The position numbers and the translations under genes were made by a program. A DNA stretch of 41,085 nucleotides from positions 1 to 41,085 of the forward strand of contig CAZEZV010000001.1 in the NCBI GenBank assembly GCA_964516725.1, in the 5' to 3' direction. Under the pieces are notes generated by a model, which ran no database searches, was not told the origin of the DNA, and worked only from the letters and a program-made list of their open reading frames with translations. Shown one piece after another: positions 4,246 through 39,646 of the stretch. Source of the DNA: an uncultured Phycisphaeraceae bacterium. GTDB lineage: Bacteria > Planctomycetota > Phycisphaerae > Phycisphaerales > UBA1924. The number at the start of each line of letters is the position of its first letter. The first letter of the stretch is position 1.

Positions 4246-4379
4246 CGGGGGGAGGGAAAGTGCGAGGGTGCGACAGAGCCGGTCGTGCGAGAGTGAGAAT
4301 GTATCGGCGATTTGTGGTGCGGGTCACTATCTGACGCTGCTCTCTACAGTGTGCATTGTCTGAAGCGCCTGTCACACTC

Positions 4380-5237
4380 ATGTCCCCCATTACCATCACC
4401 AATCTATCAGACCCGCGACTCGCACCATACGCCAATCTCAAGGACGCGGCACTGCGCCGGACGGAGTGGGATGGGTCGCACAATCTGTTCATCTGCGAGA
4501 GCGAACTGGTGGTTCGCGCGTTGCTGGCGTCGAAGTACGAGATTGCTTCCATCCTGTGTACGCCCGCGGCGCATGAGCATCTCGCGGACGCCATCAAGGC
4601 GGCCCGCTCGGGCGGTCCGAATGCGCCAGCGAAGCGATTCGACACGTTGGTTGCGAACGAGTCGCTCCTGCACACTGTCACGGGCTTCAACTTTCATCGA
4701 GGTGTGCTCGCGGCGGGTCTTCGAGGGTCGCAGCCCTCGCTGGCTCTCGCGCTCAAGACCGCGACGAGCATATTGATGCTCGAAGGCATCTCAAATCACG
4801 ACAACATCGGCGCGTTGTTCCGCAACGCGGCGGGTCTTGGAGGAGAGCGGCCACTGATCGTCGTGGGGCCGCAATGCTGCGATCCGCTGTATCGCAAGGC
4901 GATTCGCGTCTCGATCGGGCATGTACTGCATGTGGATTGGATCAAGGTTGAATCTTGGCAGCAAAGGGAAATGCAGAACGACGTTCTTGCCGCGGTTCGT
5001 GCGGCGGGATTCAGGATCGTCGCGCTGTCGCCGCGTGCGGATGCGGTTGCGCTTCAAGACGCCGCGGCGAAGAACGATGCGAGGCCCGCCTTGTTGCTTG
5101 GCGCGGAGGGACCGGGTCTTGCGGAAGACACCATGAACAGCGCGGATGTGATGGTGCGGATTCCGATGCGAGCGGGCGTGGATTCTCTGAACGTCGCGAC
5201 GTCCGCCGCGGTGGCGTTGTCGTGGTTGGTGAAGTAG
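4380..5237 (+). CDS. SpoU/TrmH-family RNA 2'-O-methyltransferase
   Basis: The track ORF starts at TTG 4356. The first ATG, at 4380, gives MSPITITNLSDPRL. SpoU motifs are present: LEGISNHDNIGALFRNAAGLG, LLLGAEGPGL and IPMRAGVDSLNVATSAAVAL. Confidence 0.9.
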   Translation: MSPITITNLSDPRLAPYANLKDAALRRTEWDGSHNLFICESELVVRALLASKYEIASILCTPAAHEHLADAIKAARSGGPNAPAKRFDTLVANESLLHTVTGFNFHRGVLAAGLRGSQPSLALALKTATSILMLEGISNHDNIGALFRNAAGLGGERPLIVVGPQCCDPLYRKAIRVSIGHVLHVDWIKVESWQQREMQNDVLAAVRAAGFRIVALSPRADAVALQDAAAKNDARPALLLGAEGPGLAEDTMNSADVMVRIPMRAGVDSLNVATSAAVALSWLVK

Positions 5238-5274
5238 CGCGAGTTCCAGATCAAACCCGTGCCACCAACGCTCG

Positions 5275-10720: not shown

Positions 10721-11473
10721 TCAGTTACCGTTCAAGTCTTCCGGCTGAACCACAACTTCAGTCTGCTGCAATTCGCCTTCCTGCTGAGCGACCGGCGGCA
10801 GGGTTGAGGGCTTGCCGTATTGATCGCCTGTGAGCGACGCGGTGGCCTTGGCCTTCATTTCTCGCTGGGTGATCACAAACTGGTTGGGGTCGTCGACAGC
10901 GGGGACGAAGGAGTATTCAGGAGCGCTGACTTGGCCTGCGGGCCACGATCGCGCGTAGACGACGTTCCAGGGTTTGATGCCGCCTTCCAGGTGAACGGTG
11001 ATGAGTTGGTAGACGGGTGTGCCGTCAGCGCCGGGGCCCATTTCGGGCATGGGTCGGAGGATGTCAACATATGCCTTGTTGAAGCGCATCCAGACGCGGG
11101 TGACGTGGAAGGTGGGCAGACCCAAGGCGACGTTTTTGGGCGTCGCGGGGAGAACTTGCGGGCCCACTTTGCCCGGGATGCGTTCATAGAACACCTTGCG
11201 CATGCCCAAGGGCAGATTGATGACGCACGGGTAATTCACGTAAGGCAAGCCGCGGGGCTCGACTTTGGGATCGTACATGCGTTGGCCGGGCGTCCAGCGC
11301 GAACCAACATATTGCAGCGCGGCGACCATCGCCTGCTCGGTGGCGGGGCGATTGGGGTCTTCGGCGTAGCCCTGAGAGGTTGGAATTTCGGGATAGCTGC
11401 TTTGCTGGTAGCAACCAGTCAGTGACGCGGTGCAAACGAGGGCGGCGAGGAGAATGGATGCGGTGCGAGTCAT
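10721..11473 (-). CDS. lipoprotein, function unknown
   Basis: ATG 11473 is preceded by GGAGGG and gives MTRTASILLAALVCTASLTGC (lipobox). The longer 372-aa track ORF adds a low-complexity S/P-rich extension and is rejected. Confidence 0.8.
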   Translation of the reverse strand: MTRTASILLAALVCTASLTGCYQQSSYPEIPTSQGYAEDPNRPATEQAMVAALQYVGSRWTPGQRMYDPKVEPRGLPYVNYPCVINLPLGMRKVFYERIPGKVGPQVLPATPKNVALGLPTFHVTRVWMRFNKAYVDILRPMPEMGPGADGTPVYQLITVHLEGGIKPWNVVYARSWPAGQVSAPEYSFVPAVDDPNQFVITQREMKAKATASLTGDQYGKPSTLPPVAQQEGELQQTEVVVQPEDLNGN

Positions 11474-11495
11474 GTGTCCCTCCATGGACCAGTGG

Positions 11496-11567
11496 GCCCG
11501 GCGTCTCGCCGGGCACTTTTCGTGAGTGGCGACAATCACATGCGACCTGCCTGGCGGGGACGCCGGG
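11496..11567. repeat. degenerate Family B-like hairpin pair
   Basis: gcccggcg-tct-cgccgggc (11496-11514) and cctggcg-ggga-cgccggg (11550-11567). They share the GGCGTC(C)TCGCC / GGCG(A)GGACGCC cores and the two-unit inverted layout of Family B. Confidence 0.35.
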
Positions 11568-11609
11568 CCTACTGGGGGCAGTTCTTGCGCTTGCGACAAT
11601 ATTAGTCGG

Positions 11610-12665
11610 CTATTTGTGCCCGAACACGAGAGCGACGGCGATTGTGATTGCAATGAACGCGATTCCGGCGACTCGGAGAGGATTGTCCTTGAGGAACATC
11701 TCGGTAGGGTCGTCGTAGGCGCCGCGTTCGATGAGGACCATGCTCCGCAAGAGGGCGTAGGTGGCGGGGAGGATGGTGAACCAGAGCCAGTTGATGCCCG
11801 CGGGGACAAGGGCTGTCGCGAAGGCCGCCGCGCTTTCACGGGATTGGACGTAAAACGCGTAGGTGATCAGCGTTGCAACCGCCGTGACCACGACGCTCAT
11901 GCGGAGGAGTTCGTCGGTGTACTTACCCTGGACGCTGCGGGCGGCCGTAGCGTCATACCCAGCGGCTTCCGCGGTGCGGCGTTCGCCCAGGCGTTTGGCG
12001 AAGGCGAGGAACATGGCGAGGAAGAGCGTGCAGTTGAGCAGCCACGTGCTGGGCATGATGCCGACGGCGACGCAGCCGCCAATGACGCGGAGGACGAAAC
12101 CAAGGGAAAGGCTCAAAACATCGGCAATGACGCGGTGTTTGAGGAAGGCAGAGTACAGCAGAACGTTGAACATGTAGAGGCCCACGAGCAGGAGCGTGCC
12201 GGAACGGAAGTTGCTGTTCAAGAGGAGAGACAGGGCCGCGCCTGCCAGGACGAGCGCGATCATCACGCCAACAGCGAGGGCGGGCGAGATCGCGCCGCTG
12301 GCAATGGGGCGATTGCGTTTTCTGGGGTGGTGACGATCGGCTTCGACGTCGCGGAGATCGTTGTAGATGTAGCAGGCGCTGCTCGCCAAGGCGAAGACTC
12401 CCGCGGCGATCAGGCCTTGGATGATGATGTCCTGCCAGCGGTCTTTGGGGATGTCGCGCAGTCCGTACAGGGGACCCAGAAGTACGAACACGCTCTTGAC
12501 CCACTGATGGGGGCGAGCGAGTTTGACAAGAGCCAGAAGAGAGAACGGGGCGGGCACTATTGGCACATGGGGCGTACTGGCGGCGTTCGCTGCCGGTTCA
12601 ATCGGGGATTGAGCGGCAGAAACTTGCGACGCAGGTTGGGGAACAGGGGCGGACACGTCCGACAA
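11610..12665 (-). CDS. UbiA-family polyprenyl-phosphate phosphoribosyltransferase (decaprenyl-phosphate phosphoribosyltransferase-like)
   Basis: Polytopic. The motif YIYNDLRDVEADRHHPRKRNRPIASG closely resembles the NDxxDxxxD...KR.RPiA.G signature of the Rv3806c-type family. The start is uncertain: TTG 12665, or GTG at 12569 or 12560. Confidence 0.88.
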   Translation of the reverse strand: MSDVSAPVPQPASQVSAAQSPIEPAANAASTPHVPIVPAPFSLLALVKLARPHQWVKSVFVLLGPLYGLRDIPKDRWQDIIIQGLIAAGVFALASSACYIYNDLRDVEADRHHPRKRNRPIASGAISPALAVGVMIALVLAGAALSLLLNSNFRSGTLLLVGLYMFNVLLYSAFLKHRVIADVLSLSLGFVLRVIGGCVAVGIMPSTWLLNCTLFLAMFLAFAKRLGERRTAEAAGYDATAARSVQGKYTDELLRMSVVVTAVATLITYAFYVQSRESAAAFATALVPAGINWLWFTILPATYALLRSMVLIERGAYDDPTEMFLKDNPLRVAGIAFIAITIAVALVFGHK

Positions 12666-12770
12666 TCATCGGCTAGAAACGCCTTGAACCACACACCACA
12701 CGAATCTCCTGCCACCGGGCAACCTCGATCAGATTCAGGCAGCCATGCCGACGGGCAGGGTGTTGCGAAT

Positions 12771-14303
12771 GTGTGGCTGAATGTGGCGGTTGTGGTTGGC
12801 GTGTTTCTGGTTGTGGCTGGGTCGTTCATTGTGGCCCGGGTGATTCCCAATCGAGCTGTGTTTGATCAGCGTCACTACCACCAGCCAACCATCGAAGGGT
12901 TTGCGAAAGAGTGGCCCGCGATTGATGTATGGGATTACCTCTCGGCGACGACGCCTGGGTATCACTGGGTGTTGGCTGGTGTGCTGAAGGTGTTCGGGGC
13001 GGGTGTCGCGGGGTTGCAGGTTGTGTCGATGGTTTTCAGCGCGGGGTTGTTTGGGTTGGTGGCGTGGATGGTGGGGAGAGGGATGAGGGATCGAAGTGGT
13101 GCCGCGCCTGGGTTTGGCGCGGCGTTCCTGTGCATGCCGATTGTGTGCTGTACCTACTTCATTGTGGGCGGGATTGCGCTGCTGCCTGACAACGCGGGGT
13201 GGCTTGGGGTGTGCGCGGTGCTCGCGCTGGCCCTGCATGCGAAGTCGATGCGGGCCTTGTGTGGTGTGGGTTGCGTGGTGCTGCTCGCGCTGGTGCTGAC
13301 GCGGCAGGTGCATCTGTGGACGTGCGGATTGTTGGTGCTGGCGTCGTGGTTGGGGTGTGCGGTGCCAAATGTCACGCAAGATGTCAAGCCTGATTTTTCG
13401 ACAAGGCGATTTTCGCGAGCAGCAATCGCGGCGATTGCTTGCGTGCCGGCGCTGATTGCGGTTGCGCTCTTCGTGCGGTATTGGGGCGGGCTTGTGCCGC
13501 CCCGGTTTCAGTTGCAGTATCCGCCCAAGCCGGTATCGCAATTCTTCGCGTCGCCCGCGCCGGCCTTTGTGCTGAGTGTTTGCGCGATCTTTGGGGCGTT
13601 TTTGATCGGGTTTTGGTGGCAGGGGTTTCGTGCGTTGTGGACGCGGATGCGATGGGTGTTGTTGGTCGTGGTTGTCGTTGGGATGGCTCTGGCGGTTGCG
13701 CCCGCGACAAACTTTGACTATCTCGCGGGTCGGCGAACGGGGTTGTGGAACCTGACGCGGCACGCGCCAGTGCTGTTTGAACGCACGAGTGTGTTGATCG
13801 CGGTGCTTGCGCCGATCGGAGGCGTTGTGCTGGCATCGTTCTTTGTGTCGCTGCGCGAGCGTGGGTTGGTTCGTGATGCCGCAATCCTGCTTGCGACACT
13901 GGCAGGCTACGCAATCGTGCTCACGGCGAGCAACGAGGTGTGGCAGCGGTATGTGGAGCCGTTGGTGTTGGTGGTGATGGTGTTGATGTGTGCAAGGGTT
14001 GGGTTTGAAACTGACGCAGCACTGACGTCGCGGAGCATGGTTGGTGCTGACTCTGAAAAAGGCGCCCCTTCAGTGACGCAAGGCACCGACCGGCTGTCGC
14101 CAATCGGTGGCACGGCGATCAGGTGCGTCGGCGTCGTGAGTCTGTCGATCGCTTTGATTGCGATCACGTTGAAGACTATGAGTGTTGGGTTAGAGAAACT
14201 GAGCGATCCGCCGCCGCCGGCGATTACGGCGGATCACATTGGCCCTACGCCGCCGGTGTTGCTGCCAAGGCCAGAGAAGCCTGCGGGCAAAAAGTTCTGG
14301 TAG
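12771..14303 (+). CDS. GT-C-fold (ArnT/PMT-like) integral membrane glycosyltransferase, putative
   Basis: This is the 3' 510 codons of the 925-aa track ORF, with at least 10 predicted TM helices. The proposed GTG start at 12771 gives (M)WLNVAVVVGVFLVVAG. The upstream part of the ORF is antisense to the UbiA gene and is rejected. The function call rests on topology and context only. Confidence 0.7.
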   Translation: MWLNVAVVVGVFLVVAGSFIVARVIPNRAVFDQRHYHQPTIEGFAKEWPAIDVWDYLSATTPGYHWVLAGVLKVFGAGVAGLQVVSMVFSAGLFGLVAWMVGRGMRDRSGAAPGFGAAFLCMPIVCCTYFIVGGIALLPDNAGWLGVCAVLALALHAKSMRALCGVGCVVLLALVLTRQVHLWTCGLLVLASWLGCAVPNVTQDVKPDFSTRRFSRAAIAAIACVPALIAVALFVRYWGGLVPPRFQLQYPPKPVSQFFASPAPAFVLSVCAIFGAFLIGFWWQGFRALWTRMRWVLLVVVVVGMALAVAPATNFDYLAGRRTGLWNLTRHAPVLFERTSVLIAVLAPIGGVVLASFFVSLRERGLVRDAAILLATLAGYAIVLTASNEVWQRYVEPLVLVVMVLMCARVGFETDAALTSRSMVGADSEKGAPSVTQGTDRLSPIGGTAIRCVGVVSLSIALIAITLKTMSVGLEKLSDPPPPAITADHIGPTPPVLLPRPEKPAGKKFW

Positions 14304-18481: not shown

Positions 18482-18910
18482 GTGAAGCCTGTCGTTCTGT
18501 CCTTGCTGCTCGTACTGCAACTCTTCGTTGCACCGTGGATTCACGCGCGCGATGCTGAAAACACGACGGAAGCGGCGGCTCTGTCAAGCGAAACCGACTG
18601 CTGCTGTTGCGATTGCGGTTGCTGTACGGGCGAAGCAATGCCCGGCAGGACCGGCACCCCGTCCAGATCCTGCACGCCCGACAACTGTGGGTGTGGAGCG
18701 CGAGTGGCTCAGTCGGCACTGATCGAACGCCAAGCGGTTCGCAAGGCTGGCGTGGCTCGGAAGGCGAACACACTCACGGGCGCTGCGCGAGATCGCCTTG
18801 CGGGTTCGATGCGGCTGGTTTGCTTCGAGAGCCGCAACACGGTGCGCAGTCGTGCTGATGTGCTGACAACGCGAGCTCGGCTTTCCTTGTTTTGTTGCTG
18901 GACGACCTAG
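18482..18910 (+). CDS. secreted poly-cysteine protein, no recognised family
   Basis: GTG start. Signal peptide (M)KPVVLSLLLVLQLFVAPWIHA, then ETDCCCCDCGCCTGE and SCTPDNCGCG, an Arg/Ala-rich segment, and a C-terminal FCCWTT. No convincing RBS. First gene of a same-strand cluster. Confidence 0.55.
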   Translation: MKPVVLSLLLVLQLFVAPWIHARDAENTTEAAALSSETDCCCCDCGCCTGEAMPGRTGTPSRSCTPDNCGCGARVAQSALIERQAVRKAGVARKANTLTGAARDRLAGSMRLVCFESRNTVRSRADVLTTRARLSLFCCWTT

Positions 18911-19046
18911 CTCGGAGATTCCGCGCACGCATCACAAGCTTCGCTCTTGCGTTTTGCAGAGAGCAATCGTCGCGTTCGGGCTATGCCCGGACTGATTCTT
19001 CCCGCAATCAAACTCTCAACTGCACAAAGGTGCAAGGACTCTTTTC

Positions 19047-19436
19047 ATGTTGACCAATCGCTCATTCGTCGCGGCGTTGTCCGCGTCTGTTCTTGTTGCG
19101 TTCTTTGTTTCCGGCTGCGCGAGCACGCCCGCAATGGAAGAAAACGCCGTCGTCCATCACGTGTCCGATGCTGATACGCAAGCCGCGCACAGCAAGGACA
19201 AACTCCGGGGCACGACCGCCGTGCTCTGGGTCAATGGTCTTGGCTGTCCGCAGTGCGCGACCAACGCCGACCTGCAACTCAAGCGAATTTCTGGTGTCGG
19301 AAACATCTACACCGACCTCAGCACGGGCAAGATCAGCCTTTCGCTGCCTGGCGGCGAGAAGAACCCAACGGCCAAGCGCCTTTCCGATTCGGTCGCGGAC
19401 GCTGGCTTCACACTCGTGAAAATCGAGTCCAACTGA
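19047..19436 (+). CDS. heavy-metal-associated (HMA) domain lipoprotein
   Basis: Lipobox FFVSGC. HMA fold with the metal-binding loop VNGLGCPQCATNADLQLKRISGV and the C-terminal beta strand GFTLVKI. Confidence 0.85.
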   Translation: MLTNRSFVAALSASVLVAFFVSGCASTPAMEENAVVHHVSDADTQAAHSKDKLRGTTAVLWVNGLGCPQCATNADLQLKRISGVGNIYTDLSTGKISLSLPGGEKNPTAKRLSDSVADAGFTLVKIESN

Positions 19437-19469
19437 TCACCCAAGACACTTCAACACAAGGAACAACTC

Positions 19470-20321
19470 ATGAAAACAAGTCTGCTCGCAGGCCTCGTGC
19501 TTGCCTGTCTTTCATCTCCGGTCCTCGCCCAGGAAGCCATGGAAACCGCCGCAGCGACCATGCCAAGCCCGGGCATTCTCACGTTTCGTCCGCAGTTCCA
19601 TGTCTCCAGTTACGGCCAAAGGCCCGACGTCGCCTCGGGTTCGGGCATACTGAGCGACCGCACGCTCAGCGCGACAGCAGACATGGGCATTCAGTACGGC
19701 CTTGCCCGTGACTGGTCGCTGTCTTTCGATGTGCCGCTGACGCTAGAGCGTGAAGAAGACCTCTCCGGCGACACCGACAGCGCCGTCGGCGTTGAAGACG
19801 TTGACGCGTACCTCAAGTGGCGCTTCTACCGAAAGGATCACGGCGGCATCAACACCACGCGAGCCGCGCTCTTGTTTGGTGCGGAGTTCGCCAGCGGCGA
19901 CAGCGAGAAATTCTCAAGTCAATCCGTCAATCCTCACGTCGGTGCCGTCATCACCATCGTTCATGGGCGTTTGGGCTTCAACCAAGACTTTCACTACACA
20001 TGGAACACCGGCGGCTCCCGCGAACGCAACCTGGGCGGCGATGGGCCCGACGACCACATCAGTGCGGGCACGGCGTTTGTCTATCGCGTCTGGCCCGACG
20101 CTTTTACTTCCCAATCCGTCGGTGCGTGGTACGTGACCGCAGAGGGCATCCAGCACTACGAAACCAATGGCGATTACGAGCTGCGATTCCTGCCGGGTGT
20201 GATGTATGAAGGCAGGACGTGGGCGTTTGAGGCGATGCTCGTACTGCCGGTGATTGAGGAACTGGACGAGCGGCCCGAACTAGAGTGGGGAGCGGGGTTT
20301 GGGTTTCGATTCACGTTCTAG
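19470..20321 (+). CDS. outer-membrane beta-barrel protein (MetA-pathway/transporter-like barrel, putative)
   Basis: Signal peptide MKTSLLAGLVLACLSSPVLA, alternating amphipathic strands, and the C-terminal GAGFGFRFTF with terminal Phe that is typical of OMPs. Confidence 0.8.
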   Translation: MKTSLLAGLVLACLSSPVLAQEAMETAAATMPSPGILTFRPQFHVSSYGQRPDVASGSGILSDRTLSATADMGIQYGLARDWSLSFDVPLTLEREEDLSGDTDSAVGVEDVDAYLKWRFYRKDHGGINTTRAALLFGAEFASGDSEKFSSQSVNPHVGAVITIVHGRLGFNQDFHYTWNTGGSRERNLGGDGPDDHISAGTAFVYRVWPDAFTSQSVGAWYVTAEGIQHYETNGDYELRFLPGVMYEGRTWAFEAMLVLPVIEELDERPELEWGAGFGFRFTF

Positions 20322-20491
20322 TCAGTTGGTCGGGCCAGAGACGGGCCCCAACACCAACAAAACCCGCATCGCTTGCGGCGTTTCGTCCGATACAACTCCG
20401 AGTCGTTCCTTGCCGCGTGCCGAACAATGCACGCGGCTTTTCGTATGTGCGCGAGGCACGCAAGAGATGGCGAACGTGGTTGAAAACGTCA

Positions 20492-22132
20492 ATGGCGGAC
20501 GCAGAATCTTCATCCCGGCCTGACGCCCCATTCGAAGCACCCCCCGATGCGTCCCTCATCGCGCCCGCAGACGAGCCGAACACGCCACCCGAGATCAGCG
20601 TGGGCAAGCGCGTTGGCTTTGGGCTTGCATGGACGCTGGTTGCGAACGTGATCGGCAAGGGTGCAGGCATCGCGCTCACGATCGTGCTCGGGTATCTGCT
20701 TTCGCAAGAGGAGATGGGTGTCTGGTCTGCGACGCTGGGCGTGTACTCGATCATGGTCGCGCTCCGCGATGGCGGGCTTGGAACTTTGCTCGTTCAGAGA
20801 GGCGAGCGCGAGTACGAGAACCTGATTGGCCCGGTCTTCTGGCTGTCCGCCGGGCTTCACATGTTTGGCGCGCTGGCGCTTGCGGCGATTGCTCCGATCT
20901 ATGCGGCGCAGCAGCCGGACAAGGTGGGTTTGCAGGGCACGATGCTGCTGTGCGCGCTTGCGCTGCTTCTGCTGTCGCCCTCGGCGGCGGCGTTTGCGAG
21001 GCTTCGCATGCAACTGCGCTTCGCCCGCGTCGCTGCGATCATGCTCGCGGCGTCGCTCGCGAGGGTGGCGGTCGTGCTCGGGTGCGCATACGCGGGGCTG
21101 GGGCCCATGAGCTTTGGCTGGGGGCTTGTGGCCGTCGCGATCATCGAATCGGGCGCGATGGTGTACAGCACGCGGGAGGCGCTCTGGGCGCACGCTCCGC
21201 AGGTGCGTCGCTGGCCCAACTTGATCTACCTCACGCGCTGGAACATCGCGCTTGCCGTCGCGAGCGCGCTGGCCGCTGCGGGCGATTCGCTAGCGCTTGC
21301 GCCGCTGGTTGATGCAAAGATTCTGGGCATCTATTACTTCGCCGTGTCGCTTGTGATGCAGGTTGAGCAGGCGATTTCGGGCTCCGCGTCGCAGGTGCTG
21401 TTCCCGGCGTTCGCGCAGTTCAAGGACGACGAGAAGCGACTGGGCGATGCGATGCTGCGGGCGTGCCAGGCGCTTGTGCTCATCGGCGCGCCGATGACGC
21501 TGGGGCTGGGCGCACTCGCGGATCCCTTGATCAAGTTTGTCTGGTCCAACAACCGGTGGGACGAATCGATCCTGTGTCTGATGGCGCTGAGCGTGTTCTT
21601 TGTGTTCCGCATCGTGTTTGTCTCGCCTGCGGCGGTGCTGCTCGCGCAGGGGCGGTTCAAACGCGTGTTCGCGTCAGTGTTTGGCGCGGGCCTGTCGCTA
21701 CCAATCGCGGCCGCCTTCGGAGCAATCGTCTGGGGCTCACCGCTTGCGATTGCGATCTGCGCCGGCGCCGCATTTGGGCCAACGTGCCTGCTCATGTCGC
21801 TGTGGATCGGCAAGCACATCGGCGTTTCGCGCCGGCGCATGCTGAAGGCGCTGCTGCCGGCGTGGTTCGCTGCGCTTGCATGCGGAGCTGCTGTTTGGAG
21901 CCTCGACAGACTTGTGTTGCAAGGAGTGTGCGGCATCGGTGTTGGCGACAGTGCTGGTCGTGTGCATCAGTTGATTCGCCTTGTCACGGGCGGCGCATGC
22001 TTCTGGCTGCTCTACATCGTGCTCATCCGCTTCGCGCTGACACACGCGCTCATTGACGGACTTTCCATCACGCCTCAGCGCATTCGCGGCCCAATTCAGA
22101 AAGTTCTGCGATTAAATTCTGAAAGCGCCTAG
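20492..22132 (+). CDS. MOP-superfamily flippase (Wzx-like polysaccharide/oligosaccharide exporter)
   Basis: Start re-set to ATG 20492 (MADAESSS). About 12-14 TM helices. The N-terminal pattern GFGLAWTLVANVIGKGAGIALTIVLGYLLSQEEMG is typical of Wzx/PST-family proteins. Confidence 0.8.
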   Translation: MADAESSSRPDAPFEAPPDASLIAPADEPNTPPEISVGKRVGFGLAWTLVANVIGKGAGIALTIVLGYLLSQEEMGVWSATLGVYSIMVALRDGGLGTLLVQRGEREYENLIGPVFWLSAGLHMFGALALAAIAPIYAAQQPDKVGLQGTMLLCALALLLLSPSAAAFARLRMQLRFARVAAIMLAASLARVAVVLGCAYAGLGPMSFGWGLVAVAIIESGAMVYSTREALWAHAPQVRRWPNLIYLTRWNIALAVASALAAAGDSLALAPLVDAKILGIYYFAVSLVMQVEQAISGSASQVLFPAFAQFKDDEKRLGDAMLRACQALVLIGAPMTLGLGALADPLIKFVWSNNRWDESILCLMALSVFFVFRIVFVSPAAVLLAQGRFKRVFASVFGAGLSLPIAAAFGAIVWGSPLAIAICAGAAFGPTCLLMSLWIGKHIGVSRRRMLKALLPAWFAALACGAAVWSLDRLVLQGVCGIGVGDSAGRVHQLIRLVTGGACFWLLYIVLIRFALTHALIDGLSITPQRIRGPIQKVLRLNSESA

Positions 22133-26668: not shown

Positions 26669-29600
26669 TTAGATCGCAGGCACGATCTGGGGCGACGGTT
26701 CGAGCAGCAGTTTCTGTGGAGCAAACGGCGCGACGAGGCTGTCTGCATTGATGGTCACGCGCGACCAGGCGTGCTTAGCGACGACGTTGGCCGGTTGCGG
26801 GAGAGGTTCGATTCGAGAGTGCGGTGGCGCGTCGATGGCGGTTGGCGTGTCGAGCGCGCAGCAGCCGCAGGTGAGCATCCAGCGGTCAACAAACGACTCA
26901 ATGTCCTCGTAGGTCGCGTCGCAGCGCGTGAGTCGCGGGACGAACCAGGTGCGGGGGAGACAAGCGGGACCGCGCTTGGTGCGTTCGTCGAGGGCGTGCT
27001 GCATCGCTTCCCAGCACTGCTCGATCGTGTCGCGGTGCGAGCGGGCGAGCCAGGTTTCGGGCGTGTCGCCCGGCATGCCGATGCTGACAACGTCAACGCC
27101 CAGGTCCAACGCCTCGATGAGCGATTCTCCTTGCGTGCGAGTGATGTGTTCGTGCGAAGTGTGGACGTGAACGCCCGCAAAGCCCAGCGGCTTGGCAAGA
27201 CTTGCCAGTTCGCGCCAGGGGCCGCTGCCGGAGGCGTCGTGGATCGTCAGCGCGAGCGGTTGGCCTGCGTCTGCCGCAGCGTGGGACGCGATCCTGAGGC
27301 GCGACGCCAAGCTTGCAGTGTCGGCGACGTCACGCGAACAGGTGCTCAACTCGAAGACCTCGGGAAGTTTGGTTGCGGCGCTTTCAAGCCACGACGAGAA
27401 GGCGGTTGCAACTTCTGAGCCGGCCGAGAGCGTCACGTTCGTTTGTGAGGCGTGCTCGACGAAGGCGCGGAAGTTCGCATCGTCGTATGTGCAGCGCACG
27501 AGCACATCGCGCATTGCCGGCGGGACTTGCACGCAGAAGGGCTTGGCGATGGGGTCCGGCTGCGGCGTGCGCGGGTGGTAGCCCACGAGTTGGCCCAGTG
27601 TGCCCAAGATCGCGCGGGCGCTGTTTGAGGTGTCGGCATCACTTCTATGAGTGAAGCCGGCGAGCTGTGCGAGAATGTCGCTGCCGACGACCGCACCGGC
27701 GAGGCCAACGCCAGCCTGCGAGAAACAGAACGCATGGCGGCGCGGGGCTTCGCGATAGCGGGCGATTATCGTGTCAGTCGTTGTTGGGTCCAGGGCGATC
27801 CAATCTGCGCCAACGAGCAGTGCGGCGTCGATGCCGTGCTGCCGAGCGAGCGAGTTCCATAGTGCTGGGTGGAGAAGCTCGTCGTAGACGCTGAGGTTGG
27901 CGATACCGGTGCGCCAGGATTGGCGAGACCAGAGGCGGGCCGCGCGGACACTGCTGAGGCGGCTTTGGACTAACTCGGCTTGTTGATCGGTGACGGTGTG
28001 CACGCGGATCGGCTTTTTGCCCTGCTGAAAGAACCACTCTTTGCGAGAAGTGTCGTGCCCAAGCGGAGAGAGAAGCGATTCGGTGCGCAGCGCGTTGCCG
28101 GTGATGAGAAGGACACCGTCGAGTTCTTTCAACTGGCTCAGGCGATCAAGCGCCGCGGCGAGAATCGAAGCGTGGTTCTTGCCAGCGAAAACAACCTGTT
28201 GATCGAGCGCGCGCGGGCCGATCGCCGAGCGAGCGTGATCAACCCAGACGCACGCCCACACGTTGCGGCGCCGGCCGTCAACTCCCGTTTGGTCGGCGAG
28301 GTCGATGGATTGGGGCGTCACGCTGCGAGTTGGAGCGACACCAGTCTTGGTTGCGGCAAGAGTGTCGGCGAGCATGTCGCTGGCGGTGCTGGCGGACTCG
28401 CGCAGCCATGTGACGTTCTGAACATCTCGCTCGATTTGCTTGCGTTGCTTTTCAAGTGGCGAGAGCGAATCGTCAAGCTCGATGGCGCGGTCGGCTTTGA
28501 AGCGGTTGAACTGGCCTGTTTGATTCAGGTGTTGCACGAGCCAGTTGGCTTCGAGCGACGTGATCTCAACGGCCCGCTTCTGCACCCGATCAATCAGGCG
28601 ATTGACGAGAGCCTGGTCGCTGTGATGCTTGAGCATCTTGCTCAGGTCTTCGATGGTTTCCGCGCACGCGCCGCGGATTGTTGTGCATTCGCGCGAGAGT
28701 GTTTCGAGGCGGGCGCAGAGGGCTTGCTTGCGATCTGTGGTGGGACTTGGCGTTGGGAACGTCGCGAGCGGTTGCGTGGGCGCAAGCGGCGCGTCGGCAG
28801 GGGCGGCGACATCCGCGGTGAAAGAGACTTCGAGAGAGGATGCCGCCGGTGCAGCGGATGGGGATGGCGATGTTGCTGAAGTTGTGCGCAAAGCGCCGAG
28901 TTGCTCAAGTGCCTTGCGCAGCGGCATGATGCGCGTGTGCTGTTTCAGCACGCCGCCCTCGGTGGCGTCGATTGTGGTCTTGCCGGCGTCTTTGTCTCGC
29001 AAGAAGTCTCGCTCGAACTGGAGCAAGTACGTCGCCATCTGCTCATCGGTAAAAACGGGTCGGCCTTGCTGATCAAGGGTTTTGCGAAGGTGTGCGCGCA
29101 TGCGCATGATGCGTTGCCACTCGAGCATTTCGAGGGAGCAGAAGTCGTTGAGTTCGGCGGACCAGACTTGGTGAATCGCCGCGCCGGGGGCGTAGTACTG
29201 GCCATCAGTGAAGCCAAGGTCTTGGCCGATGAGCAGCACAGGGTCGCAGCCCAGGTACCGCGCGAGGTAATAGGAAAGATGAGCGACGGTCGCGCCCATG
29301 GGGAGTTGGCCCATGTCGCGAGCGAGTGACTTGCCCAGGACGCGCGTGAGCGTGTCATCGTGAACGCAGCGGATGGTGCCAGGAAACGCACGAAGGATCG
29401 CGCAGTTGGCTTTGGGTTCGACGACGAGCGTGACACCTTCGACGTCTTCCCTCGTGAGGCCTTCGTAGAAGCGACTGCTGATCTCGTGATAGTCCAGTGC
29501 CGTCACGAAGTGTGGCTTGATGCCCTTCGAGAGCAATTGCTTCAGAACCGTTTGCGCGGCGATGATGACAACGCGATCGCGGATGCCGGGAGTCAGCAGT

Positions 29601-30475
29601 ATGTCAATGTTGCGGCGCAGGCTTGGACCGGCGGAGACGACGATCGCCGGGCGATCTTTCTGGCTGTCTTTGAGGTCGGCGATGCCAGGAGCGTGGAGGT
29701 ACACGTTGGCGTTGCCGAGCAGGTTGCGCAGTGTGATTTCAGAGTGCGCAAGCGTGGTGATGACGTTGGTGCGGACACCTTTGACGACGGTGGTGAGGGT
29801 GTTGGCAAAGGTCTCGCCATCAGTGCCGATGCGCAGTTTGCTGGAGGGATGGTCAACAAGCGAAACGCCCGCAGCGACGAGGCCTTCGAGGCCTTCAAGC
29901 CCGGCGGCAGTCGGACCGGTTTCGTCGGCGCGAGTGATGAGGATGAAGCGGGTTTGGCTCAGCCACGGTGTGCAGTCGATTCGACCAAGCACGTCGCGCA
30001 AGAGAGACACATCGGGCTCAAAGCAGATGATGAGGCCCGTGCCACTCACGCGCTGGGCGAGGTGGCGCAGATGGTGACCAAGGGCAAAGCCGCGGACGAC
30101 GATCGCCGCGCTGGCTTTGATGTCGACGCTCTCGGCAAGGCGCTTGGCTTCGGTGTCGGCGGCGCGGGCGCTTGCAAGGAGCCTGCCCCCACTCTTGTCA
30201 AGGCGCGCGGTCAGCAGGTTGTCGTCGCTGTGCAGGAACGTAACGCCGAACGAGGGCTGCGCGGCGCGGATGTCGCGCACGGCGGACGCGCTGCGGAAGG
30301 CGAGGGCCCCCAGGTTGCGCTCGAGGGTGTTGTGGTCGAAGGGGGGGGGCGGGGCAGAGGTTTGTTGTTGGGTGTTGGTCACAGGGCGCTCCGCGCAGGG
30401 GACGACGCCGGCATCCTGCCGGGGACTTGGAGTCATCGGCGGGACTGTGCGATTTTCAGCAAAATCATAGGGCAT
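26669..30475 (-). CDS. Maf-type (DUF115/MptE-like) flagellin glycosyltransferase fused to a ~600-aa C-terminal extension
   Basis: 1268 aa from ATG 30475. The N-terminal half has the Maf core (PAIVVSAGPSL, FVTALDYHE, LIGQDLGFTDGQYY, IDATEGG). After a P/A/S linker and a helical region come an SpsF/cytidylyltransferase-like stretch (VWACVWVDHARSAIGP...GKNHASILAAALDRLSQLKELDGVLLITGN) and a TIM-barrel-like segment that resembles a radical-SAM core but lacks the CxxxCxxC triad (VFELSTCSRDVADT). Confidence 0.9.
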   Translation of the reverse strand: MPYDFAENRTVPPMTPSPRQDAGVVPCAERPVTNTQQQTSAPPPPFDHNTLERNLGALAFRSASAVRDIRAAQPSFGVTFLHSDDNLLTARLDKSGGRLLASARAADTEAKRLAESVDIKASAAIVVRGFALGHHLRHLAQRVSGTGLIICFEPDVSLLRDVLGRIDCTPWLSQTRFILITRADETGPTAAGLEGLEGLVAAGVSLVDHPSSKLRIGTDGETFANTLTTVVKGVRTNVITTLAHSEITLRNLLGNANVYLHAPGIADLKDSQKDRPAIVVSAGPSLRRNIDILLTPGIRDRVVIIAAQTVLKQLLSKGIKPHFVTALDYHEISSRFYEGLTREDVEGVTLVVEPKANCAILRAFPGTIRCVHDDTLTRVLGKSLARDMGQLPMGATVAHLSYYLARYLGCDPVLLIGQDLGFTDGQYYAPGAAIHQVWSAELNDFCSLEMLEWQRIMRMRAHLRKTLDQQGRPVFTDEQMATYLLQFERDFLRDKDAGKTTIDATEGGVLKQHTRIMPLRKALEQLGALRTTSATSPSPSAAPAASSLEVSFTADVAAPADAPLAPTQPLATFPTPSPTTDRKQALCARLETLSRECTTIRGACAETIEDLSKMLKHHSDQALVNRLIDRVQKRAVEITSLEANWLVQHLNQTGQFNRFKADRAIELDDSLSPLEKQRKQIERDVQNVTWLRESASTASDMLADTLAATKTGVAPTRSVTPQSIDLADQTGVDGRRRNVWACVWVDHARSAIGPRALDQQVVFAGKNHASILAAALDRLSQLKELDGVLLITGNALRTESLLSPLGHDTSRKEWFFQQGKKPIRVHTVTDQQAELVQSRLSSVRAARLWSRQSWRTGIANLSVYDELLHPALWNSLARQHGIDAALLVGADWIALDPTTTDTIIARYREAPRRHAFCFSQAGVGLAGAVVGSDILAQLAGFTHRSDADTSNSARAILGTLGQLVGYHPRTPQPDPIAKPFCVQVPPAMRDVLVRCTYDDANFRAFVEHASQTNVTLSAGSEVATAFSSWLESAATKLPEVFELSTCSRDVADTASLASRLRIASHAAADAGQPLALTIHDASGSGPWRELASLAKPLGFAGVHVHTSHEHITRTQGESLIEALDLGVDVVSIGMPGDTPETWLARSHRDTIEQCWEAMQHALDERTKRGPACLPRTWFVPRLTRCDATYEDIESFVDRWMLTCGCCALDTPTAIDAPPHSRIEPLPQPANVVAKHAWSRVTINADSLVAPFAPQKLLLEPSPQIVPAI

Positions 30476-30525
30476 TTCGGCGATTTTGAGAACGTGGTGC
30501 GAAGAATGTCAACACCAGCGGGCTT

Positions 30526-31227
30526 GTGAGCGTACAACAGAGCGTGCTTTTTCTTGCCCAGCAATCTGGCGGCGGCTCTGGCGGTCTTAGCGGCATTCTG
30601 GACATTCCGGCCCCCCCACCATTGCCGTCAGGCGGCGGGTTGCAGGCGTTTTTGTTCGAGAAACCTTGGGTCGGGGTTGCGATCCTTGCGCTGACGGGCA
30701 TCGGGCTGCTGGTGTTTTATGCAAAGCGAGAGCAGTTCAAGCTCGGTGCGCAACGGGGCGGGCCGCTTTTGATCTTGGCAGGGGTGTGGGTGCTCGCCGC
30801 GGCGTTGATCGAAACGCGGCATGAGCAGATGCGGATGGCGACGCAGCGCCTCATTGAATCGGTGACGCGGGCGGACAGCAACACTCTGCGGCAGCAACTC
30901 ACGCGCGACGCCAAGTTGCTGTACTACGGCGGGCTGCCATTGCAAGCGATTCTGGATCGCGTCGTGGCGGAGATGGGGCCGGGGAAGGAGTACAACGTCA
31001 GCGAGTTTTCGATTGTGGAGTTTCAGTCGCAGGGCTTGAAGGAAGCAGTGGGCATTTCCGCGGGGCAAGCGGGCGGAGTTGTTCAGGTAAAGGTGCGGGT
31101 GGTGTCGAGCGTGTATGGCGTACCGCACCTGTCGTGGTGGAGGCTGGACATGATCCAGGACCCGGATGGTGAGTGGCGGACGTCGGTGATTTCACCGCTG
31201 GCGATTCAGTTTCGATCGTTGCAGTAG
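30526..31227 (+). CDS. hypothetical membrane protein (2 TM + soluble domain)
   Basis: GTG start. G/P-rich N-terminus, TM helices WVGVAILALTGIGLLVF and LLILAGVWVLAAALI, then a domain of about 130 aa. Divergent from maf. Confidence 0.65.
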   Translation: MSVQQSVLFLAQQSGGGSGGLSGILDIPAPPPLPSGGGLQAFLFEKPWVGVAILALTGIGLLVFYAKREQFKLGAQRGGPLLILAGVWVLAAALIETRHEQMRMATQRLIESVTRADSNTLRQQLTRDAKLLYYGGLPLQAILDRVVAEMGPGKEYNVSEFSIVEFQSQGLKEAVGISAGQAGGVVQVKVRVVSSVYGVPHLSWWRLDMIQDPDGEWRTSVISPLAIQFRSLQ

Positions 31228-31301
31228 ACGCGATGTTGTTTGGCCGATAGAGGATGGCCGGAGCGCAGTGTTTCAGCGCCGTGATACGCTCTCCGCCCCG
31301 C

Positions 31302-32258
31302 ATGCCCACCCCTGTCGCCAGCCTCCTCATCAACACGCTCAACCGCAAGGACGACTTGCGCATCGCGCTCAATTCTGTCTTTGAGCAGACAGTGCCGCTC
31401 GAGGTGATTGTCGTGGATGATGGCTCGACAGACGGTACCAGCGATATGGTGCGGGCCGAGTTTCCGCAGGTGAAGATGCTCCGGAACGAGCAGCCGCTGG
31501 GAATCATCGCGGCGAGAAATCGTGCGGCGCATGAAGCGACGCACAACATCATGTTCACGATGGATGATGACGCGACGTTTTCGTCAAAGACGACTGCGGA
31601 GCGAGTGCTGAAGCGATTTGATCATCCGCGAGTGGGCGCTGTGACTCTGCCGCTGATTGATCACATTGAAGGGGTGGCGCAGAAGCCGTCTCTGCCGATC
31701 AGCGAGGAGACGCCTGCGGACTTTCCCGTGACGTTTGCGTATACGGGTGGCGGCAACGCGAAACGGCGGGACTTGTTCCTGGCGCTGGGCGGGTATGGCG
31801 GCGTCGGGAGGCAAGGGGAAGAGTCGAATTACTGCATCAAGATGCTCAGCGCGGGATACATCGTGCGGATCGCGTGCGCGGGGTGGCTCAATCACTATCC
31901 GATCGTCAAGAAGCGCGACGAGAACAAGATCGCGTATTCGGGGGCGATGAACCGCGTGATTTACACGATGCAGCACGTGCCGTTTCCGGAGGTTGTGAAG
32001 CACATGGCTGGGGTGCTGGTGAATCAGGTTCGCGTTGGGATTCGTGACGGGCGGCTGAAGCACTGCTTGAAGGGTGTGTGGGATGGGTGGTGTTGGTATC
32101 GCGCGAATCGACAGGTTCGCAAGCCGATCACGTCGCAGGTGTATCAGTTGAGCCGGGTGCTTGTGACGAAGGAGGCGCTGCCATTTTCGGAGGTTGAGGG
32201 GATGCTGCCGCCCATGAAGACGGTGGAAGAGATTCGGGAGATGAGTGGTGCAGGGTGA
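31302..32258 (+). CDS. family 2 glycosyltransferase
   Basis: ATG 31302 gives MPTPVASLLINTLNR. GT2 motifs LEVIVVDDGSTDGT and FTMDDDATF. Confidence 0.9.
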   Translation: MPTPVASLLINTLNRKDDLRIALNSVFEQTVPLEVIVVDDGSTDGTSDMVRAEFPQVKMLRNEQPLGIIAARNRAAHEATHNIMFTMDDDATFSSKTTAERVLKRFDHPRVGAVTLPLIDHIEGVAQKPSLPISEETPADFPVTFAYTGGGNAKRRDLFLALGGYGGVGRQGEESNYCIKMLSAGYIVRIACAGWLNHYPIVKKRDENKIAYSGAMNRVIYTMQHVPFPEVVKHMAGVLVNQVRVGIRDGRLKHCLKGVWDGWCWYRANRQVRKPITSQVYQLSRVLVTKEALPFSEVEGMLPPMKTVEEIREMSGAG

Positions 32259-32273
32259 TCAAGCACGAGTATT

Positions 32274-32482
32274 CTGCCGCAACGCGGCAGAGGTGAATAG
32301 CCGTGGATAGCCGCGAAGCGGCATCCACGGCGCTGTGTTGGCACAAAGCAGCACCACGACGTGGTGCAGGAAAGTGTGTTGCCGCACCATCATCGCTTCG
32401 CGATGACACATCCAAGAACGCGCGTTCCGTGGATGCCGCTTCGCGGCTATCCACGGCTATTGACCGAGACGGCTACGCCGTC
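32274..32482. repeat. Family C 209-bp mosaic palindromic element, copy 2
   Basis: The arms aatagccgtggatagccgcgaagcggcatccacgg (32296-32330) and 32427-32461 are perfect reverse complements (35 of 35). Each arm is also its own hairpin (ccgtggat-a-gccgc-gaa-gcggc-atccacgg). Outer hairpins ctgccgc-aac-gcggcag and gacggc-tac-gccgtc, and a central hairpin gcaccac-gacg-gtggtgc. Confidence 0.9.
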
Positions 32483-32573
32483 CAAGCAAGGGCGGTTTGG
32501 GGACCTTTGCGGCGCGACGATCTTGTTGACGCGCGTGATCTGACATTTCGAGAGTTGCGGAGTACCGTTGCAC

Positions 32574-33566
32574 ATGTCAACAACAGCGCAGCAGATTCCG
32601 GCCGGTTCTCGAGTCATTGTGACCGGCGGGGCGGGGTTTTTAGGCAAGTTTGTGATCGAGAAGCTGCTCGCGCGAGGAGTGACGCGCGACAACATCTTCA
32701 TTCCGCGCCGCAAGGACTTTGACTTGACGCAGCAGGCCGACGTCGCTCGCATGTATCGCACGGCGTTCAAGCACTTCCCGCCTGATCTTGTGATTCACCT
32801 CGCTGCGGAGGTTGGCGGGATCGGCGCGAACCAGAAGAATCCGGGTCGGTACTTCTACGCGAACATGGCAATGGCGCTGCACTTGATTGAGCAGTTCCGC
32901 GAGGAGGGACTGGTTTCGCGCGGAGCGAAGTTTGTGCAGGTTGGGACCATCTGCGCGTATCCAAAGTTCACGCCGGTGCCGTTCAAGGAAGAGGACTTGT
33001 GGAACGGGTATCCGGAAGAGACCAACGCGCCGTATGGCGTTGCCAAGAAAGCCGCGTGGCAGATGCTGGACGCGTACAAACTGCAGTACGGCATGAAGAG
33101 CGCATATGTGCTGCCGGTGAACTTGTATGGGCCGGGCGACAACTTTGACTTGTTCAGCAGCCATGTGATCCCCGCGCTGATTCGCAAGGCGGTTGTGGCT
33201 CAAGAGCGCGGAGACAAAGAGATCGTGTGCTGGGGCACAGGCAGCGCGTCGCGCGAGTTCTTGTACGTTGAAGACGCGGCGGAGGGAACGCTGCGCGCGG
33301 CAGAAGTCATGGACTCCCCCACGCCTCTCAACCTTGGCGCCGGCTTCGAAATCAAGATCAAGGACCTTGTCGAGTTGATCGTGAAGCTGGTGGGGTTCAA
33401 GGGGAACATCGTGTGGGACACGAGCAAGCCCGACGGACAGCCGCGGCGGCAATTGAGCGTTGAGTTGGCGGCGAAGCAGCTTGGTTGGCGGGCACAAGTG
33501 CCGTTTGAGGAGGGGCTCAAGCGGACGATTGCATGGTTCAGGGATCACAAGGGCAAGATCAAGTAA
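32574..33566 (+). CDS. fcl: GDP-L-fucose synthase (GDP-4-keto-6-deoxy-D-mannose 3,5-epimerase/4-reductase)
   Basis: The track start is TTG; ATG 32574 is used. [36 protein letters not shown] and NLYGPGDNF fit the Fcl/WcaG pattern. Confidence 0.93.
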
Positions 33567-33605
33567 TTGCAACGAGCTCGCGTCGCGCGGGGCGTGAAAC
33601 AGGGA

Positions 33606-33726
33606 GTTCGCTCACCACAGAGGCACAGCGAACGAAAGAGAATGAGATGGATTGTGTACCCACGTTTCTACTTTCCAGTTTTCCTTTTCCGCTCTCTGTG
33701 ACTTTGTGACTCTGTGGTGAGCGAAC
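33606..33726. repeat. Family A long hairpin repeat, copy 3
   Basis: gttcgctcaccacagag (33606-33622) is the exact reverse complement of 33710-33726. It shares the cacagag / gcgaacga / tgagatgg motifs with copy 2 and has a CT-rich right arm (ttttccttttccgctctctgtg). Confidence 0.8.
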
Positions 33727-33900
33727 CAGACACGAGATCGATTGGGCACGGCATGGCAACGCGGTTATTGGCCGCGACGCATGCATGATGACGCACATTT
33801 CGCGCGATCGTCCTGTGCGCGTGCGATTCAGCCACACGATTTTCCATCGCGTTCCAACTCGCCGCGAAGGCGCGCACTATGAGTGCCGATTGTCGGTTTG

Positions 33901-37934: not shown

Positions 37935-37989
37935 CCCATTCGTTCCACATGGAACAGGAGAATCGTCGTAACTCTAAGGAGTGTCAGGC

Positions 37990-38952: not shown

Positions 38953-39124
38953 AAAGAGAACAACCGCGGCGCTAATGTTTGGTCGATGTTTGCAGCACGT
39001 ACTAAGTATTGTTACTCAATTTGTTATGTAGACGTCGACTTGTGCAGATAGCATTCTAACAATGCGCTGCTGCTCTAGCTCGGAGAGTGAAGCGGTTTGT
39101 ATCACACTTTTCGAGGAGTATTAC

Positions 39125-39517: not shown

Positions 39518-39564
39518 AGCGGTTGAATAGTGAAATCGCGGGTCAATCAGTTGCGACAACGAAG

Positions 39565-39596
39565 AACGTCCGGCGAAAGCCGGACGTTTTCTTTTG
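39565..39596 (+). terminator. rho-independent terminator
   Basis: aacgtccggc-gaaa-gccggacgtt followed by ttcttttg, 48 nt after the stop at 39517. It lies between convergent genes, so it may act in both directions. Confidence 0.8.
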
Positions 39597-39646
39597 AAGT
39601 CAGATGACACACGGCAACACACAGTGGACGTGTGCTGGTGTACAGC

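Follow-up and report, generated by a model that had tools for sequence, protein, structure and literature searches.

The stretch of DNA analysed here, referred to as the window, comprises 41,085 nucleotides (GC content ~60%) of an uncultured Phycisphaeraceae bacterium (assembly GCA_964516725.1, contig CAZEZV010000001.1, positions 1 to 41,085), and the subject of this work is a trio of consecutive genes on its plus strand. The first open reading frame (ORF1) encodes a small, secreted, cysteine-rich protein, the second (ORF2) a lipoprotein with a heavy-metal-associated (HMA) domain, and the third (ORF3) a predicted outer-membrane beta-barrel. A first-pass annotation had described three consecutive same-strand ORFs with export signals, and these were recovered at the coordinates given in Table 1, together with the details that it had singled out: the DCCCCDCGCC stretch, of whose 10 residues 7 are Cys, the lipobox and GLGCPQC loop of the lipoprotein, and the terminal RFTF of the barrel protein. 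Comparison of related loci indicates that the trio is a self-contained three-gene operon, found across the class Phycisphaerae. The parts are of known kinds, i.e., an HMA domain, a barrel of the COG4313/FapF class and metallothionein-like chemistry, and both their combination and the family of cysteine-rich proteins are new.

Table 1. Coordinates of the three genes and of their predicted features in the window.
Feature	Position	Strand	Description and basis
ORF1, Cys-rich secreted protein gene	18482..18910	+	142 amino acids, GTG start; ORF list, orthologues, dN/dS, alignment A2
Predicted Sec signal peptide, residues 1-22, MKPVVLSLLLVLQLFVAPWIHA	18482..18547	+	cleavage after IHA suggested by AxA-like pattern
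Cys cluster 1, DCCCCDCGCC, residues 39-48	18596..18625	+	read from sequence; C47 and C48 invariant in A2
Cys cluster 2, CTPDNCGCG, residues 64-72	18671..18697	+	holds family CxC motif; C69 and C71 >=90% conserved
Conserved C-terminal tail RARLSLFCCWTT	18872..18907	+	consensus R-[AS]-x-L-C-x-[WR]-x-T-COOH
ORF2, HMA-domain lipoprotein gene	19047..19436	+	129 amino acids; Pfam HMA, 107 homologues
Lipobox VSGC (FFVSGC), residues 21-24	19107..19118	+	Cys24 invariant in 28 aligned homologues; lipidation predicted
Predicted metal-binding loop GLGCPQC (NGLGCPQC), residues 64-70	19236..19256	+	G64, G66, C67, P68 and C70 invariant in A3 (28 homologues)
ORF3, predicted 12-stranded outer-membrane barrel gene	19470..20321	+	283 amino acids; AlphaFold2 model, Foldseek, 222 homologues
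Mature N-terminal segment of the barrel protein, QEAMETAAATMPSPG, residues 21-35	19530..19574	+	candidate lumen plug or docking element
Terminator-like hairpin after barrel gene	20412..20437	+	9-pair stem (8 GC) followed by T run, TTTTCGTATG; -19.1 kcal/mol, z -2.36

Linkage of the three genes and status of the cysteine-rich ORF

The alignment of barrel homologues (A1) was used to retrieve 59 loci from species-representative genomes. In 58 of these 59 loci, all except L032, the HMA gene is found immediately upstream of the barrel gene, and 55 of the 58 distinct barrel-anchored loci that were assessable carry, a little upstream of the HMA gene, a plus-strand ORF with a hydrophobic leader, Cys clusters and a like C-terminus that ends at a stop codon. 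This Cys ORF is missing in L011 and L038, which contain the HMA and barrel genes only, and in L032, which contains the barrel gene only. A metagenome scan anchored on the HMA gene yielded 39 loci, with a barrel gene in all 36 that had room for one and the Cys ORF in 32. Among the seven loci without the Cys ORF, the upstream sequence is shorter than 200 bp in four and amounts to 456 bp in L074, L103 represents a doubtful HMA relative that has no barrel gene, and only L077 clearly lacks the Cys ORF. The loci with an HMA-barrel pair (L011, L038, and L077) and the locus with the barrel gene alone (L032) are natural variants and potential natural knock-outs.

Where a source is named, the barrel and HMA homologues are labelled Phycisphaerales, Phycisphaeraceae, Phycisphaerae or Planctomycetota, besides one metagenome-assembled genome (MAG) labelled Pyrinomonadaceae, and the barrel-anchored records carry the labels Phycisphaerales, Phycisphaeraceae and Tepidisphaera, the last of which is placed in the Tepidisphaerales. 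The three genes stay neighbours across the class whichever of them is used as anchor, which answers the first-pass question of their linkage in the affirmative. Barrel relatives were absent from 72,556 plasmids, and the trio is therefore not a plasmid-borne resistance determinant.

Database searches with ORF1 would in themselves suit a chance open frame in GC-rich intergenic DNA, in which case the HMA-barrel pair alone would be real. A word-indexed search of 5.8 billion proteins returned no match, the ORF of the window itself included, and phmmer against 1.84 billion representatives returned three matches, none of them credible: two are repeat-rich proteins with many matched stretches and were rejected as compositional, and the third is marginal (E 3e-4), without the leader or the tail motif. 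Moreover, the ORF was left uncalled by the annotators of its nearest relatives, at loci L001 and L003. The public gene calls skip the Cys-rich gene at 5059-5457 in L001 (GCA_046350435.1), over which a 42-amino-acid call in another frame was placed (5112-5240), and at 4250-4678 in L003, over which an antisense call of 134 amino acids was placed (4196-4600). In other MAGs the Cys-rich ORF has been annotated under the name 'hypothetical protein'.

Against a chance origin stand the orthologues themselves. In L001 and L003, the two closest loci, of which the flanking genes are 78-96% identical to those of the window, tblastn with ORF1 detected an intact ORF of 132-142 amino acids in the same place and the same frame (identity 45%, E 3e-36 for L003; 40%, E 2e-29 for L001). 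No indel between the three orthologues disturbs the reading frame, and conservation extends to the leader, the CCC(C)DCGCC run, the RSCPTDNCxC motif and the tail LSLHCCWTT. Codon-level comparison gave ratios of nonsynonymous to synonymous substitution (dN/dS) of ~0.15-0.34 for ORF1, 0.09-0.12 for the HMA gene and 0.06-0.10 for the barrel gene, values that are rough because dS is saturated (>1), and the substitutions in ORF1 are found mainly at third codon positions. On the basis of the intact in-frame orthologues, the dN/dS ratios below 0.35 and the third-position changes, ORF1 is a genuine, fast-evolving gene; the homologues for which the first-pass annotation had proposed a test exist, and the gene is under purifying selection.

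The wider family leads to the same conclusion, as the leader, the Cys clusters and, right before the stop codon, the exact C-terminal motif recur in more than 80 loci. A composite signature, which requires the C-terminal motif together with 7 or more Cys among the final 150 residues, was present in 52 of 3413 six-frame stop-to-stop segments (>=100 amino acids) from the related loci; all 52 are positioned at the expected site just upstream of the HMA gene and none is found elsewhere, which makes ORF1 more than a product of chance. The in-frame orthologues, the dN/dS ratios, the size of the family and the specificity of the signature together refute the reading of ORF1 as an artefact, and a chance origin retains almost no credibility. 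That this family was missed by gene callers in some genomes calls for caution with small, fast-evolving, Cys-rich genes in GC-rich genomes.

Features of the three encoded proteins

ORF1 reads MKPVVLSLLLVLQLFVAPWIHA, followed after the predicted cleavage point by RD, and further downstream by ETDCCCCDCGCC, SCTPDNCGCG and the terminal LFCCWTT. The family alignment (A2) comprises 50 Cys-rich members, and the composition and motif statistics were determined on 54 members. A hydrophobic N-terminal segment is present in all members listed, with Pro18 at least 90% conserved; AxA-like sites occur in many of them, and the leader is presumably cleaved. CC, CxC and CxxC motifs are encountered in nearly all members (CC in 51/54, CxCC or CCxC in 37/54, CxC in 53/54, and CPC in 29/54). 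In the tail, which includes a conserved Trp, L occupies position -6 in 36, C position -5 in 42, W (41) or R (13) position -3, and T position -1 in 37 of the 54 sequences. The median length of the family is 142 amino acids, and a linker of 70-90 residues that is rich in Pro and Ala and nearly devoid of Phe and Tyr separates the CxC motif from the tail. The composition of the mature proteins (Cys 8.6%, Pro 11.1%, Ala 14.7%, Phe 0.7%, Tyr 0.1%, Ile 1.9%, and Lys 1.1%) is that commonly seen in chains that lack a fixed fold.

Pfam had no match for ORF1, none of the 50 family members matched any Pfam or NCBIfam model (E up to 0.01), the family profile gave compositional matches only against PDB sequences (E 0.02), and there was no profile match to the modelled bacterial metallothionein, CopG/DUF411 or Csp families. 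Single-sequence AlphaFold2 (AF2) prediction of ORF1 was uninformative (predicted local distance difference test, pLDDT, of 53). The Cys-rich family is thus previously unmodelled in family libraries. A precursor of a ribosomally synthesised and post-translationally modified peptide was considered and dropped, in view of the Sec-type leader and of the finding that no modifying enzyme or transporter is conserved nearby.

CC, CxC and CxxC motifs are typical of Cu(I)-thiolate proteins, including the metallothioneins, Cox17 (CCxC), CopG (CxCC) and CCS (CxC). Compared with such proteins (SmtA/BmtA, MymT, Cox17, CopG, and Csp1; for a review see PMC7558416), the product of the first gene shows a partial resemblance, in its small size, its CC, CxC and CxxC motifs, its paucity of aromatic residues and, probably, its lack of a fixed fold in the metal-free state. 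It differs from the bacterial metallothioneins, which are cytoplasmic, and from Csp1, a four-helix bundle exported via the twin-arginine (Tat) route, in its Sec-type leader, and its Cys content is lower than that of metallothioneins because of the linker and tail that are attached. Searches in Pfam, NCBIfam and PDB gave no sequence match to the SmtA/BmtA, MymT, Cox17, CopG or Csp1 families.

The Pfam HMA model (PF00403) aligned with ORF2 over model positions 1-61 of 62 (E 9e-5) at 23.2 bits, just below the cut-off of 24.8 bits; this profile search had been suggested in the first-pass annotation. Most of the homologues of ORF2 have a precomputed PF00403 match, and the loop LWVNGLGCPxC is invariant in alignment A3. 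The near-full-length match and the invariance of both the CxxC and the lipobox Cys uphold the earlier description of an HMA-fold lipoprotein with a metal loop. The family profile matched CopZ (1.7e-11) and, more strongly, the metal-binding domains of Cu-ATPases, followed by MerP (2e-7) and ZntA (3e-3), and on this comparison it leans to copper. In its full-length HMA profile and the invariant CxxC in the usual loop, the protein resembles the CopZ/Atx1-type chaperones and MerP. However, CopZ is cytoplasmic and MerP is soluble in the periplasm, whereas the second gene product is predicted to be exported and lipid-anchored through its invariant lipobox Cys; its loop reads GLGCPxC instead of the GMTCxxC of the CopZ/Atx1/MerP type, and in the loci compared its gene is paired with that of an outer-membrane barrel and never with an ATPase gene or a mer operon. 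A further distinction is a conserved EENAVxH(x)VSxAD motif that A3 displays in the stretch linking the lipid anchor to the HMA domain (window 19131-19160, residues ~29-38). This motif loosely resembles the start of the mature barrel protein (QEAME...).

ORF3 encodes a signal peptide and ends in GFGFRFTF, with F283 invariant. The AF2 model obtained with A1 has 12 strands at a pLDDT of 77, which agrees with the earlier assignment as a beta-barrel outer-membrane protein. Pfam as a whole yielded no credible match for ORF3, and the related check for the barrel family PF13557 turned out negative at the sequence level: neither ORF3 (E up to 0.1) nor 15 aligned members (E up to 1) matched the model, and a precomputed PF13557 match was found for 2 of 120 barrel homologues among the matches listed. 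The barrel profile gave nothing credible against PDB sequences either. Foldseek against PDB placed FapF (5o65; E 2e-7, TM-score 0.56-0.60) and the COG4313 channel Pput2725 (4rl8; E 2.6e-7) on top, followed by autotransporter beta-domains, with TM-scores to COG4313 channels of 0.54-0.58. Some 15 residues precede the first strand in the AF2 model (pLDDT low up to residue 23), and the motif QEAMxTxAATMP in this segment is kept in 80-81 of 82 distinct barrel sequences. Conserved residues at positions assigned to the lumen by strand parity include R40, K116, R118, R131, R206, E225, E231, R239, M245, E247, E254, M256 and R280; the R, K and E residues among them are invariant, M24, M31, M245 and M256 are kept in 79-80 of 82 sequences, and the mature barrel is entirely free of Cys in 75 of the 82. 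The lumen would accordingly be polar, charged and Met-containing, which sets it apart from the lumen that a channel carrying hydrophobic molecules should have.

The two best structural matches differ from ORF3 in several respects. With Pput2725 it shares a 12-stranded, monomer-sized barrel and ~14-15 conserved residues before the first strand, and in Pput2725 the N-terminal 14 residues are folded into the lumen (PMC4493636). However, ORF3 and A1 lack the PTG motif, the proposed lateral gate of COG4313 channels, and instead have a conserved NTGG in a different loop; moreover, COG4313 channels are tied to hydrophobic substrates, whereas ORF3 conserves charged Arg, Glu and Asp as well as Met at lumen parity. 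FapF, the best Foldseek match, is a plugged 12-stranded barrel that is encoded beside a secreted unfolded substrate and exports amyloid subunits (PMC5557850). Unlike the FapF system, the trio has no coiled-coil trimerisation domain, no FapD protease, no homologues of FapA, FapB, FapC or FapE, and no amyloid repeats.

Proposed soft-metal handling and alternative functions

Tentatively, and with confidence a little short of even, we favour a role in which the trio handles a thiophilic metal, with Cu(I) the probable one, both at the outer membrane and within the periplasm, because of the invariant CxxC of the HMA protein, the profile matches to CopZ and Cu-ATPases, the motifs of the Cys-rich protein and the conserved Met residues of the barrel. 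Metal ions would cross the outer membrane passively through the barrel, the lipid-anchored HMA domain would take up the ion on its CxxC, and the Cys-rich protein would fold round several ions as a metallothionein-like metal-thiolate cluster and serve as a periplasmic metal buffer or store. The conserved tail of the latter may dock to the HMA protein or to the barrel. Affinity would rise from the Met/Glu sites via the CxxC to the poly-thiolate, and as the outer membrane has no energy source, such a gradient would favour uptake and sequestration over efflux. The first-pass proposal of a soft-metal conduit thereby stands in its three-gene linkage and its metal-type motifs, to which the fold class of the barrel can be added; from these we infer the binding of a metal, its identity, its passage through the barrel, the direction of transfer and the contacts between the proteins.

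Several points weigh against soft-metal handling. The proteins closest to the barrel in fold transport hydrophobic molecules (COG4313) or unfolded polypeptides (FapF and the autotransporters) and not ions, and the lumen-facing positions were derived from sequence parity and not from coordinates. In the oxidising periplasm the CC-rich stretches could be disulfides, and the metal specificity is not fixed by comparing HMA profiles. Moreover, the HMA-barrel pair can stand alone, as it does without the Cys gene in L011, L038 and L077, and the saturation of dS tempers the dN/dS ratios. Finally, genes for a metal sensor, an ATPase, an RND pump or an oxidase are not recurrent neighbours in ~95 loci, which extends to the relatives the earlier remark that the trio has neither a P-type ATPase or RND pump nor a MerR/CsoR regulator or multicopper oxidase beside it, and no metal-resistance gene adjoins it in the window.

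The principal alternative follows from the polypeptide-exporting pores among the closest folds of the barrel, by analogy with which a FapF- or autotransporter-like barrel would pass the Cys-rich protein across the outer membrane in an unfolded state, for secretion or surface display. The HMA lipoprotein would then be a periplasmic chaperone or loader, the C-terminal strand of the Cys-rich protein a targeting or anchoring signal, and the thiolate cluster would do its work extracellularly, either trapping metal or serving as a protein 'chalkophore'. FapF and the autotransporter beta-domains of BrkA, Hbp and EspP, which are among the best structural matches, are all protein-secretion barrels (PMC5557850). 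The Cys-rich protein is poor in hydrophobic and aromatic residues, as would be expected of a substrate that travels unfolded, within the family, conservation outside the Cys residues is highest at the extreme C-terminus, and the fixed gene order would correspond to cargo, chaperone and pore. A stem-loop within 30 nucleotides of the stop of the Cys gene (the most stable local hairpin of the spacer in 25 of 54 loci, a count made without a proper shuffling control) would fit a cargo expressed above its pore. However, a FapF-type coiled coil at the N-terminus, a FapD-like protease and amyloid repeats are all lacking, the N-terminal segment of ~15 residues is closer to that of COG4313 uptake channels than to that of FapF, and L011, L038 and L077 possess the pore without the cargo gene. 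No covariation of the W/R variants of the tail with any barrel or HMA column was found: mutual information between the tail variant and every column of both alignments gave weak and noisy values only, and on the barrel tree the sequences with R do not group together, so that no tail contact can be deduced. Export of the Cys-rich protein is on balance rather unlikely; if it were true, a new kind of cargo would be added to those of the FapF/COG4313 barrel class.

A physical coupling of the Cys-rich protein to the barrel via its conserved C-terminal strand, in place of a role as a soluble sponge in the periplasm, is also conceivable, in either of two possible forms, and we consider it quite improbable. 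The protein could be threaded through a FapF-like pore and displayed at the surface as an extracellular metallothionein, or it could span the periplasm in a TonB-like manner, with an uncleaved leader as anchor, the Pro-rich linker as spacer and the C-terminal strand pairing with the invariant N-terminal segment of the barrel. If true, the latter arrangement would connect a thiolate cluster close to the inner membrane with a gate in the outer membrane in the absence of ExbBD, and either form would constitute a device of a new kind that captures metal across the envelope, or beyond it, without an energy source.

A function unrelated to metals would make the Cys-rich protein a disulfide-cross-linked structural or redox component of the envelope, with the HMA-like protein and the barrel being unrelated to it or redox-active. 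The small Cys-rich OmcA of Chlamydia offers a parallel, as do the cystine- and proline-rich envelopes reported for planctomycetes, and the organism belongs to the Planctomycetes-Verrucomicrobia-Chlamydiae (PVC) group; the high Cys and Pro content and the lack of metal regulators and pumps nearby would likewise fit. Nevertheless, the barrel cannot be disulfide-linked to the Cys-rich protein, since the mature barrel is Cys-free in nearly all sequences, the invariant CxxC loop and fold signature of the HMA protein match those of copper chaperones, and vicinal CC and CxC clusters are generally typical of metal-thiolate sites rather than of structural disulfides. A purely structural or redox role is therefore regarded as very unlikely.

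Soft-metal handling by the trio would differ from the outer-membrane copper routes that are known, which include OmpF-type porins, NosA/OprC, ComC, PcoB/CopB and CusC (PMC7558416). It shares with these an outer-membrane protein, and the Met and acidic residues at its lumen parity recall those used for Cu(I) by the Cus system. However, its fold and partners are different, and TonB dependence, a partner of the RND or membrane fusion protein type and a multicopper oxidase are lacking; in the review, none of the copper routes has an HMA lipoprotein or a poly-Cys protein as its partner (PMC7558416). A description of such a three-gene module was not found in the literature searched. The crossing and buffering of soft metals at the outer membrane is a less settled area of bacterial metal homeostasis, to which the trio would add a different design, consisting of a putatively plugged 12-stranded barrel, a lipid-anchored CxxC chaperone and a secreted metallothionein-like protein, kept as a unit across a whole class of widespread environmental bacteria without a pump or regulator alongside.

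Boundaries of the unit and surrounding regions

The suggestion in the first-pass annotation that the following genes, for a Wzx-like flippase and an EEP phosphoesterase, may belong to the same transcription unit was not supported. The synteny of the epimerase, PDZ, Wzx and EEP genes of the window is limited to the closest relatives, the trio is flanked by opposite-strand or unrelated genes in L104-L106, and all-against-all ORF clustering revealed no other neighbour family in more than 7 of 61 loci. In addition, the terminator-like hairpin (Table 1) is positioned between the stop of the barrel gene (20321) and the likely start of the Wzx gene (20492), and likely marks the 3' end of the unit. 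The lack of any other conserved neighbour, the flanks elsewhere and this hairpin restrict the unit to three genes and place Wzx and EEP outside it. The Wzx-like ORF of 615 amino acids (20285-22132) is over-extended at its 5' end, where it overlaps the barrel gene; translation probably begins at the ATG at 20492 (MADAESS...), the calls in relatives have 540-541 amino acids, and the match in L003 begins at residue 67.

The spacer between the Cys and HMA genes (18911-19046 in the window; further examples are L001, L007, L012, L013, L018, L036, L046, L058, L059, and L064) is unusually long for an operon, with a median of ~166 bp over the loci. The hairpin that starts close to the stop of the Cys gene is often built on CGCGCG/GCGCGC, and the best hairpin anywhere in the spacer has a T-rich tail in only 11 of 54 loci. 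The hairpin close to the stop could act as an attenuator or as an mRNA-stabilising 3' hairpin that raises the dose of the first gene. In the window, the spacer as a whole was not significantly structured (z -1.63), and there was no match to an Rfam family between 18100 and 20700.

The trio is surrounded in the window by housekeeping genes, encoding gamma-glutamyltranspeptidase, BacA, FeoB, CorC, YbeY, a major facilitator superfamily (MFS) transporter, glycosyltransferases, flagellin, a DegP-like protease, an ABC ATPase and ParB. The region 26669-34746 resembles a flagellin-modification island, as it contains the genes for a 1268-amino-acid protein with an MptE-like domain, a GT2 glycosyltransferase, an NAD-dependent epimerase and flagellin (33883-34746). 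A 925-amino-acid ORF at 11526-14303 has no Pfam match; its C-terminal half appears to be a multi-pass membrane protein, its N-terminal half an apparent over-extension across the adjoining minus-strand ORF (10721-11839), and the segment 13001-14000 within it displays a strong strand bias (GC skew 0.29, AT skew -0.43). Finally, the GC content of the region 37001-40000, which spans the ABC ATPase gene, the ParB gene and a family-less ORF of 151 amino acids, amounts to 0.52-0.56, compared with ~0.60 elsewhere.

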